Shown here: piece by piece, positions 13,290-13,601 of the stretch | Layout of the letters: each line of letters starts with the position of its first letter | How positions within the stretch are numbered: position 1 is the stretch's first letter | Virus record (IMG/VR): IMGVR_UViG_3300017971_003114 | DNA length: 17,189 nucleotides | Origin: a virus | Strand: one strand, 5' to 3' | The notes under the pieces: generated by a model | What the model saw: the letters and a program-made list of their open reading frames with translations, nothing else | Told to the model about the DNA's origin: nothing | Database searches by the model: none | Program-made: the position numbers and the translations under genes

Positions 13290-13601
13290 TTACCGGTATG
13301 AGCGTCCTCCCTCCCGCCGCTTACCGTTGCGCCGGTTACCGTTGCTTCTGCGCTGGTTCTGCTGGTGCGCCTCGCTGACCCGAAGGTAGCGGCCGTCCAG
13401 CTCGAAACCATCCATGTCAGCCAAGGCTGCATCGCCCTGCTCGACTTGAATGAAACCGAAACCCTTCGACTTCCCCTCGTGTTCGCCTTCTTTGTGGGTG
13501 ATGATCTTGCACTCCAGCACGCCGTAATCCGAAAATGCCTCGCGCAGGTCTTCTTCCGTGGTGGCCCATGCGAGCCCACCAACAAACAGCCTTTTACTCA
13601 T
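13290..13601 (-). CDS. RRM-domain RNA-binding protein (103 aa) with an Arg/Gly/Asn-rich C-terminal tail, of the bacterial glycine-rich RNA-binding protein type.
   Basis: RNP-2 LFVGGL at residues 5-10 and RNP-1 KGFGFIQV at canonical spacing, consistent with a beta-alpha-beta-beta-alpha-beta fold. C-terminal RRSNGNRRNGKRREGGRSYR tail. AGGGA lies 6 nt upstream of ATG 13601. Confidence 0.8.
   Translation of the reverse strand: MSKRLFVGGLAWATTEEDLREAFSDYGVLECKIITHKEGEHEGKSKGFGFIQVEQGDAALADMDGFELDGRYLRVSEAHQQNQRRSNGNRRNGKRREGGRSYR

Follow-up and report, generated by a model that had tools for sequence, protein, structure and literature searches.

Proteins with the RNA recognition motif (RRM) are the main RNA-binding proteins of eukaryotes. 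The RRM is the commonest RNA-binding fold there; in bacteria it is patchily distributed, in bacterial viruses very rare. Some bacterial RRM proteins, such as Bacteroides RbpB, are beginning to be recognised as global post-transcriptional regulators. The RNA biology of phages is known mostly from other folds. Here we describe rbp, a gene encoding a small single-RRM protein on a 17,189-nt stretch of probable viral DNA (IMG/VR record IMGVR_UViG_3300017971_003114; hereafter the window, meaning this stretch at its full length), and compare it with its counterparts in related loci (designated L006, L195 and so on). A first reading of the window, made without database searches (the original prediction), had pointed to this gene and to a hairpin on either side of it. 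It is partly confirmed: the call of the protein stands, and the description of the flanks needs correcting, together with the type of tail.

The closest described proteins in architecture are those of the GR-RBP1/GRP7 type and CIRBP/hnRNP A18, which share with rbp the plan of one N-terminal RRM followed by a low-complexity tail. Arabidopsis GRP7 has an FVGGLAW...T start and a KGFGFV RNP-1 as in rbp, tobacco GR-RBP1 (4c7q) is the best structural match, and the CIRBP structures 5tbx and 1x5s also rank high. In contrast to these plant and animal proteins, the rbp tail is rich in Arg and Asn, contains no RGG triplet and is not Gly-rich; the β2-β3 loop is three residues longer and has two invariant His; and the gene is encoded by a prokaryotic virus-like genome. 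The cyanobacterial Rbp proteins, Bacteroides RbpA/B/C and the RBP of Porphyromonas gingivalis are alike in size and single-RRM plan, the last (7jly) being a good structural match at 35% identity. Bacterial RRM-1 proteins are described as presumed binders of single-stranded RNA (ssRNA) involved in global post-transcriptional control or cold adaptation (PMC11697453, PMC13370968, PMC12119571), and those of Bacteroides (RbpB and others) as global post-transcriptional regulators and cold-adaptation factors (PMC11697453, PMC13370968). Yet rbp is about 55% identical or less to the bacterial proteins, its loop has His in place of Asp plus a G-E-H insertion, and its context is viral, the gene being inherited with the virus.

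Among phage proteins, T4 RegA folds like an RRM and has been proposed to regulate genes post-transcriptionally (PMC7824862). As a small phage-encoded RRM-fold protein, it is the nearest functional precedent for rbp in phages. Nevertheless, there is no detectable sequence relationship between the two: no PHROG family matches rbp at E<=0.01, and the PHROGs presumably include a RegA family. Nor does RegA belong to Pfam RRM_1, with its RNP-1 and RNP-2 motifs. The link to RegA is an analogy in a possible mode of action, not one of family membership.

The RRM protein

The rbp open reading frame (ORF) runs from ATG to TAA on the minus strand, spans exactly positions 13290-13601 and encodes 103 amino acids (aa) plus stop (MSKRLFVGGLAWATTEEDLREAFSDYGVLECKIITHKEGEHEGKSKGFGFIQVEQGDAALADMDGFELDGRYLRVSEAHQQNQRRSNGNRRNGKRREGGRSYR). 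The protein matches Pfam RRM_1 (PF00076) end to end, positions 1-70 of the 70 in the profile aligning to residues 5-74, with 50.4 bits against a gathering score of 20.7 (E = 2e-13). The RNP-1 consensus is [RK]-G-[FY]-[GA]-[FY]-[ILV]-x-[FY] and the RNP-2 consensus [ILV]-[FY]-[ILV]-x-N-L. KGFGFIQV fits seven of the eight positions of the former, the last being V, and LFVGGL five of the six positions of the latter, with G for N as in GR-RBP and CIRBP. In RNP-1, K46, G47 and F50 are invariant in the 21 members of the rbp clade described below, F48 nearly so; a wider alignment of 62 sequences has invariant G47, F48 and F50. All three canonical RNA-stacking aromatics (F6, F48, F50) are present and conserved.

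A sequence search of solved structures returned 131 RRM proteins at E<=1e-5, headed by PABP, nucleolin, hnRNP A1/A2B1 and plant glycine-rich RBP. The AlphaFold2 (AF2) model, built from the 62-sequence alignment, has the topology β1-α1-β2-β3-α2-β4 (strands 3-8, 28-35, 45-53 and 74-77; helices 16-22 and 56-63), and its predicted local distance difference test (pLDDT) values are 75-89 across the RRM domain. With this model, a structure search gave 687 PDB matches at E<=1e-3, the best 50 of which are all RRM domains; the tobacco GR-RBP1 RRM comes first (46% identity, rmsd 1.7 A), followed by Fox1, RBM39, CIRBP and the P. gingivalis RBP (PG1). The full-profile match, the motifs, the solved-structure matches and the predicted topology thus fully confirm the RRM identity. 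The canonical single RRM with RNP-1 and RNP-2 had been called from the sequence alone, with a profile search named as its check, and the protein passes the RRM_1 threshold.

From residue 81 on, pLDDT drops to about 50 and the tail is predicted to be disordered. Its composition over 24 residues is 8 Arg, 4 Gly and 4 Asn, with a net charge of +8. The description of this tail as RGG-like fits only loosely: it is Arg-rich and basic, with four Gly and no RGG triplet. The tails of the relatives differ freely in length and makeup (R/N/G-rich, R/D repeats, poly-Gly), and truly Gly-rich ones, with 23-24 Gly, occur in the relatives P0020 and P0021.

Conservation of rbp and of its β2-β3 loop

The search of a big database recovered a tight rbp clade of 21 cluster representatives (64-100% identity). 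Beyond this clade, identity falls to about 50%, in cellular proteins of Planctomycetota, Patescibacteria, plants and others; no cellular protein is more than about 55% identical to rbp, and cyanobacteria are not among its nearest cellular relatives. Scans of one-genome-per-species and metagenome collections found hundreds of cellular RRM proteins, none above 51% identity and none a member of the clade. These alignment scans matched generic cellular RRM proteins, as the pattern GKSKGF[GA]F is widespread; in the one-genome-per-species scan, the best 80 of the 564 relatives are at most 49% identical. Since the closest cellular relatives are only about 50% identical and belong to mixed phyla, no donor lineage is apparent.

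Exact-protein look-ups found the same locus in five further assemblies, together with syntenic relatives, the longest contig of which measures 93.9 kb. The slot of rbp is the same in all 11 distinct lineages read, L195 included: an AAA ATPase gene, a 119-aa ORF, an ORF of roughly 138 aa, optionally an ORF of 65-69 aa, and rbp. L195 is a deep relative, whose helicase is only 57% and whose RRM is 58% identical. Over codons 1-80, dN/dS is 0.05-0.18, and synonymous sites differ at 47-80%. The gene is under strong purifying selection and, by these comparisons, has been inherited vertically across the lineage.

The clade is distinguished from 47 cellular relatives by its β2-β3 loop, H36-K-E-G39-E40-H41. 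The three residues G39-E40-H41 form an insertion that is invariant in the clade and missing from all 47, and at position 36 a His replaces an Asp that is invariant in the cellular outgroup. Further clade-specific residues with respect to the same relatives are Cys31, Asp64, Arg74 and His79. L195 retains the loop signature (CKIITHQEGEHAGKS), which 11 RRM genes on IMG/VR contigs do not have. The β2-β3 loop is a recognised specificity determinant of RRMs, and its remodelling suggests that the lineage has probably fixed an RNA preference of its own.

C31, H36, H41 and H79 (13479-13511 and 13365-13367, minus strand) are invariant in 21/21 clade members. L195 retains the first three and has Gln aligned to position 79; the equivalents in cellular RRMs are Ala, Asp, no residue and Arg, respectively. 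A metal site made up of these four residues was considered, but by RRM topology C31 (in β2) and H79 (after β4) lie on opposite edges of the sheet. The residues may act in metal binding, pH sensing, RNA contact or catalysis.

RRM genes among viruses

The rarity of RRMs in mobile elements, which formed part of the original prediction, is apparent in phages: only one of 50,697 GenBank phage records has a tblastn match to rbp at E<=1e-3 (a hypothetical protein of Microcystis phage MaAM05, only 38% identical), and there is no matching PHROG family. In the BFVD viral structure library, all matches at E<=1e-3 come from giant eukaryotic viruses. An IMG/VR search with window-specific peptides returned no clade member, and one with a conserved 29-nt DNA tract (see below) no match; an alignment scan of the same database found only 11 viral RRM genes, all of them unrelated. 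No account of a phage RRM_1 protein was found in the literature searched. The other viral RRM_1 proteins, from MaAM05, the 11 IMG/VR contigs and the giant eukaryotic viruses, are likewise canonical RRM_1 proteins on large viral genomes, but they are only 34-50% identical to rbp. Those of IMG/VR have the standard D-R-[DE]-[TS]-G-K-S-K-G loop, unlike the rbp clade, and their contigs share essentially no other genes with the lineage, only L177 giving weak NADAR and AAA matches. These other viral genes look like independent acquisitions. Taken as a whole, rbp is a true RRM protein of a known family in an unusual, probably viral setting, and has a recognition loop specific to its lineage.

RNA elements flanking rbp

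The features of the locus are collected in Table 1.

Table 1. Coordinates of rbp, its motifs, the flanking RNA elements and the adjoining genes in the window
Feature	Position	Strand	Description	Basis
rbp coding sequence	13290..13601	-	Single RRM (residues 1-80) and basic low-complexity tail	ORF, translation, RRM_1, dN/dS
RNP-2 hexamer	13572..13589	-	L5-F6-V7-G8-G9-L10 (LFVGGL)	Sequence; F6, G8 and L10 invariant in 21 clade members
RNP-1 octamer	13443..13466	-	K46-G47-F48-G49-F50-I51-Q52-V53 (KGFGFIQV)	Read from sequence
β2-β3 loop	13479..13496	-	H36-K-E-G39-E40-H41, lineage-specific	Comparison of clade with outgroup
Arg/Asn/Gly-rich tail	13293..13361	-	Residues 81-103, ending in conserved RREGGRSYR	pLDDT, composition, alignment
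Ribosome-binding region	13602..13620	-	GAAGGAACUAGGGAAAAUC, directly before ATG	Conserved; Shine-Dalgarno-like motif found
Leader stem-loop	13637..13658	-	9 bp, mRNA GUAAUCAGC-UCAC-GCUGAUUAC, 35 nt before start codon	Fold, conservation
138-aa gene	13684..14100	-	Basic C-terminus; constant upstream neighbour of rbp	Synteny in all relatives; no Pfam/PHROG match
Promoter-like sequence	13240..13268	-	TTGACA 13263-13268, 17-nt spacer ending in TGG, CAGGAT 13240-13245	Conservation pattern
81-nt leader element (model R1)	13160..13240	-	One copy per genome; holds tract CUGCCGCCAACCGUUGUGAUGACUGCCGG (13203-13231) and GC hairpin	
GC hairpin	13175..13204	-	Core CGCCGGGC-CUUCGC-GCCCGGCG at 13179-13200, then UUCCACUUUC	Pairing conserved
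Possible second hairpin	13224..13250	-	GGUGGCAG / CUGCCGCC, overlapping the -10-like hexamer	RNAalifold consensus
98-aa gene (MNKIK...)	12859..13155	-	No Pfam/PHROG match	Homologs follow the module in all relatives

The gene had been placed between a GNRA-loop hairpin in an AT-richer leader and a GC hairpin downstream, an arrangement taken as a sign of regulation. Both hairpins exist, and the 82-nt leader is indeed AT-richer than the window (GC 0.50 against 0.594) and folds better than its shuffles (z = -3.2). The loop type is mistaken: since rbp lies on the minus strand, the GTGA loop is on the wrong strand, being present only on the plus strand, and the loop of the mRNA is UCAC and varies among relatives. 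The conservation proposed as a check is there, the inner 7 pairs being kept in 7 of the 11 lineages with the loops UCAC, CCCG, GUCG, CCAG, AUGGG, GAAA and UUCCG, of which a single one (GAAA, in L187) is GNRA. The mean pairwise divergence is 6% in the 3' arm, which together with the following UAC is nearly invariant, 76% in the loop and 50% in the flank; the segment holding the ribosome-binding region (A4 columns 48-75) diverges by 16%. The stem deviates almost exclusively by G.U pairs of the sense strand, in six cells that reflect about three independent events. These deviations favour an RNA hairpin in the sense transcript over an inverted repeat acting as a DNA operator, which is disfavoured because they would be A.C on the other strand.

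The leader hairpin is absent in L012, L188, L190 and L195; in the last of these, rbp lacks spacers on both sides and shares 8 nt with the upstream gene. In four relatives, the stop codon of the 65-69-aa ORF lies within the 3' arm and a TTGACA abuts the 5' arm, and the window has neither. This additional ORF, between the 138-aa gene and rbp (L006/L008 9761-9961, L010 9763-9960, L189 8708-8917), is missing in the window, L014 and L187, and the boundary of its presence or absence coincides with the hairpin. In our reading, the hairpin is an intercistronic stem-loop that a subclade has conserved, not an obligatory regulator of rbp; it may be a processing or stability element. A promoter before rbp at the TTGACA found 5' of the hairpin in L006, L008 and L189 was also considered. 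It was rejected for the window, which has CGAGGT there and lacks the 65-69-aa ORF inside which the box of the relatives sits. A scan for consensus promoters and terminators called nothing at either flank of rbp, and an Rfam search of the whole window at E<=1 gave nothing relevant. With no Rfam match and with nearest cellular relatives outside the cyanobacteria, nothing speaks here for the comparison with cold-regulated rbp genes made in the original prediction.

On the other side, the spacer after rbp measures 134 nt, and 131-146 nt in 8 of the 9 close lineages that carry it (113 nt in L189). Its TTGACA is invariant in 9/9 close relatives and in L195, and the -35 matches its consensus at 6/6 positions. 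The hexamers are 17-18 nt apart, with TGn in most cases, and the -10 has invariant A2 and T6 and matches at only 3/6 positions, so the scanner calls no promoter. The mean pairwise divergence is 0% in TTGACA, 68% in the next 17-18 nt, about 30% in the TGG-CAGGAT-like box, 16% in the tract CUGCCGCCAACCGUUGUGAUGACUGCCGGAU and 15% in the GC hairpin with its UUCCACUUUC tail, for a comparison level of roughly 50-65% at synonymous sites. Such a pattern would be expected of a -35, a 17-nt spacer, an extended -10 and then a transcribed leader ending at the GGUGG ribosome-binding site of the next gene. The near-invariant 29-nt tract contains two CUGCCG repeats.

A covariance model of the 81-nt element (R1) finds exactly one copy per genome, with 75-100 bits (44.6 bits in L195), and no Rfam family matches the element. 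Its GC hairpin has an 8-bp core stem and 11 pairs in all. In ten copies, 109 of 110 cells are paired; six changes are one-sided, all to G.U on the sense strand, and one is compensatory (C-G to U-A), although formal covariation is weak, as 54 of 500 shuffles reach the observed value. The hairpin is not called as a Rho-independent terminator, for which at least 5 U in 8 are demanded of the tail (UUCCACUUUC). The second hairpin has no compensatory support in its 8 core pairs; L195 keeps 7 of its pairs through U.G to C-G and C-G to U.G changes.

L195 (21501-21607) allows the module to be assigned. There, the element and a TTGACA-17 nt-TAGCGT sequence stand directly upstream of the homolog of the 98-aa gene and overlap the end of a 177-aa gene inserted between that homolog and rbp. 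Because L195 keeps the module with the 98-aa gene homolog and apart from rbp, it appears to belong to the downstream gene, and it most likely serves gene 12859-13155. The GC hairpin can therefore not be retained as rbp's own regulatory element: it sits in the promoter-like and leader module of the next gene and is not a canonical terminator. What is left of the regulatory picture first drawn is a conserved leader hairpin, without the GNRA loop and without the downstream hairpin as part of rbp; neither hairpin is an obligatory part of the gene, as rbp in L195 has no flanking spacers. The 81-nt module could be an attenuator, a 5' untranslated region or a short RNA about 60-65 nt long. Its GC hairpin may attenuate or terminate transcripts coming from rbp, stabilise the 5' end of the next mRNA, or mark the end of such a short RNA. 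A like architecture (TTGACA, 17 nt including TG, CATACT) occurs at 1291-1319 of L006, just upstream of the SNF2 helicase gene, and this second site suggests that host sigma-70-type promoters combining a perfect -35 with a weak -10 are in use in the lineage.

Possible functions of rbp

It is reasonably probable, by analogy with the proteins described above, that rbp is a phage-borne single-RRM protein of the small glycine/arginine-rich RBP type, which would bind ssRNA and act post-transcriptionally during infection. Its β-sheet would contact single-stranded RNA through the aromatics of RNP-1 and RNP-2, and the disordered Arg-rich tail would add non-specific RNA affinity. The protein would then act after transcription on phage transcripts, host transcripts or both, either as an RNA chaperone or by regulating the stability or translation of mRNAs. 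The gene sits downstream of the AAA ATPase gene in an early or replication-type gene block and, as no promoter is conserved in front of it, is most likely transcribed together with the upstream genes.

Several points weigh against this reading. RRM folds are also able to bind single-stranded DNA (ssDNA) or proteins. The window protein has a single GGR and no RGG, and thus no Gly-rich or RGG-repeat C-terminus. The leader hairpin shows no compensatory double change, and its shuffle control is uninformative, so that covariation is weak. Finally, capsid, portal and terminase genes were not found in the window or in the about 45 kb of related sequence read, and the viral assignment consequently rests on indirect features. 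Pfam and PHROG scans identified no structural or packaging gene among about 40 neighbours in the window and its relatives, nor was there one in 10 kb further along a 62-kb contig or in a deep relative.

Several other scenarios may be considered. One possibility, which we regard as unlikely, is that rbp is a dedicated cis-regulator that recognises the leader stem-loop, the 81-nt leader or both, and, in the manner of T4 RegA or lambda N, controls either the downstream operon or its own mRNA at the level of termination, stability or translation. The element adjoins rbp in 9 of 11 lineages and is single-copy, its 29-nt tract (CUGCCGCC...CUGCCGG) is nearly invariant despite synonymous sites close to saturation, a hairpin plus a U-containing tail between a promoter-like site and a gene is an attenuator-like layout, and the Arg-rich tail would also suit such a role. 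Yet the element of L195 is set apart from rbp by the 177-aa gene, L190 has rbp without the element, and adjacency in syntenic genomes may be merely inherited gene order. It is similarly doubtful that rbp and the 81-nt RNA make up a phage RNA-protein regulatory pair which switches termination or translation of the downstream genes. In such a pair, the RRM would bind the leader, or a short transcript that ends at the hairpin, with its remodelled His-containing β2-β3 loop and its Arg-rich tail. If true, this would mean RRM-based control comparable to that by T4 RegA or lambda N/boxB, of a kind not found described for phages in the literature searched. The conserved neighbouring leader RNA as a ligand of rbp is the most interesting possibility raised by these sequences.

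Alternatively, rbp could be a recently captured host Rbp that mimics its cellular counterparts, adding general RNA chaperone or cold-stress capacity without any phage-specific target. The fold and motifs are those of the cellular GR-RBP, CIRBP and Rbp proteins, and large phages acquired RRM genes independently several times. Nevertheless, the low identity and mixed phyla of the closest cellular proteins contradict a recent capture, as do the vertical inheritance through a lineage whose helicase has diverged to 57% and the invariant, lineage-specific remodelling of the RNA-contacting loop, so we give this scenario slightly less credit still.

A role of the RRM on ssDNA, in replication or recombination, seems improbable. 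The block does hold an AAA ATPase, an SNF2 helicase and ORFs related to PolA and PolB-exonuclease, and some RRMs bind ssDNA, the H. pylori structure 2ki2 ('Ss-DNA binding protein 12RNP2') being among the sequence hits. However, the closest structural and sequence relatives of rbp bind RNA, and its tail is basic, unlike the acidic partner-recruiting tail that classical single-stranded DNA-binding proteins carry.

Genome setting

The window has 59% GC (0.594) and dense short genes, 24 of 28 of which are preceded by a Shine-Dalgarno-like motif. Many of them overlap by 1-4 nt, with frequent 4-nt overlaps of start and stop, no tRNA is found in the window, and nearly all its genes have homologs in the syntenic relatives. 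The relatives encode an SNF2/DUF6011 helicase, whose best annotated matches are in Thermus and Arthrobacter phages, as well as AdoMet decarboxylase-like, holin-like, HNH endonuclease and radical SAM genes. Where the AAA ATPase matches terminase PHROGs, it does so in its intein/P-loop region. The dense, overlapping genes led by Shine-Dalgarno-like motifs, the phage-type helicase, the holin-like, HNH and intein genes and a protein otherwise found in huge phages, resembling the major vault protein (MVP), indicate that the lineage is probably that of a prokaryotic virus, its size probably large.

That the window comes instead from a cellular genomic island or plasmid with an ordinary bacterial Rbp is very improbable: the missing capsid, portal and terminase genes, a relative in a metagenome-assembled genome labelled Anaerolineae and an IMG/VR search without any lineage member would fit, but one protein cluster goes under two labels in its sources, Anaerolineae and Thermoplasmata, as mis-binned viral contigs typically do, no 20-kb segment contains cellular housekeeping genes, gene size and packing, inteins, HNH, holin-like and phage-type helicase genes and the genes common to huge phages all speak for a virus, and the best 80 of the 564 one-genome-per-species relatives are no closer than stated above.

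The MVP-like protein (7730-10426, plus strand, 898 aa; probable start at 7784, giving about 880 aa) has the major-vault-protein shoulder domain PF11978 (87 bits) and a Vault_3 repeat. Only three of the 50,697 phage records contain relatives of it, the uncultured huge phages LR756500/501/503 of 462-735 kb, which align over 94-96% of the length with 37-38% identity; the gene is present in the window and L187 and not at that position in L006 or L008. Close kinship with LR756500 and LR756501 was considered and rejected: in the regions of roughly 40 kb read from these two phages, the MVP-like, NADAR and AdoMet_dc-like genes plus a weak AAA match are all that is shared with the lineage, and no RRM gene is present. 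The GC content of the two is 24-32%. The NADAR protein (6418-6888, plus strand; PF08719 with 96.5 bits, phrog_1017) is kept in most relatives (L006, L008, L014 and L189), and is 44% identical to that of LR756501.

The AAA ATPase (14466-17051, minus strand, 861 aa) is a classical one, with PF00004 and an AAA lid, and has a LAGLIDADG_3 intein-like insert directly after the P-loop (GPPGVGK / AQPLD ... VTHN / T), the first residue of which appears to be Ala, not Cys or Ser. The insert is found in the window, L012 and L189, and is missing from L006, L008, L010 and L014, where the protein has 518-572 aa. ORF 4844-5200 (plus strand) has a fragment-sized DNA polymerase A match at residues 83-116; in L006 (14958-15536) and L008 (15353-16038), this piece is fused to or adjoins a dual-specificity phosphatase (DSPc), and no full-length DNA polymerase was seen in the window or the relatives read. 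The 138-aa protein encoded upstream of rbp has a Cys-containing motif (WKGCPNRYKREMNRCPPGY...FCLPE) and a very basic C-terminus (RKRRERINRTKPTRLKNQDRG), and may bind nucleic acid. The plus and minus gene blocks converge at 12075-12094, where the last plus-strand gene (11873-12094) and the last minus-strand gene (12075-12281) overlap tail to tail by 20 nt and the GC and AT skews change sign. L194 (1-9400) and L195 (1-9500) encode an accessory set unusual for a phage: UDP-glucose 6-dehydrogenase, peptidase M10, a PTH2-like peptidyl-tRNA hydrolase, a caspase-like peptidase C14, a SprT-like protease, OMP decarboxylase, FMN reductase and response-regulator receiver domains.

Implications for phage RNA biology

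An uncultured phage-like lineage keeps a canonical RRM under strong purifying selection, with a distinctive RNA-contact loop fixed. The protein is a compact, easily expressed candidate for a phage RNA chaperone or regulator, and comes with a natural set of about 20 variants and with two conserved neighbouring RNA elements as candidate ligands. If rbp is a general chaperone, it would be one more auxiliary gene. If it specifically targets host or phage mRNAs, RRM-based control would join the known means by which phages take over their hosts.

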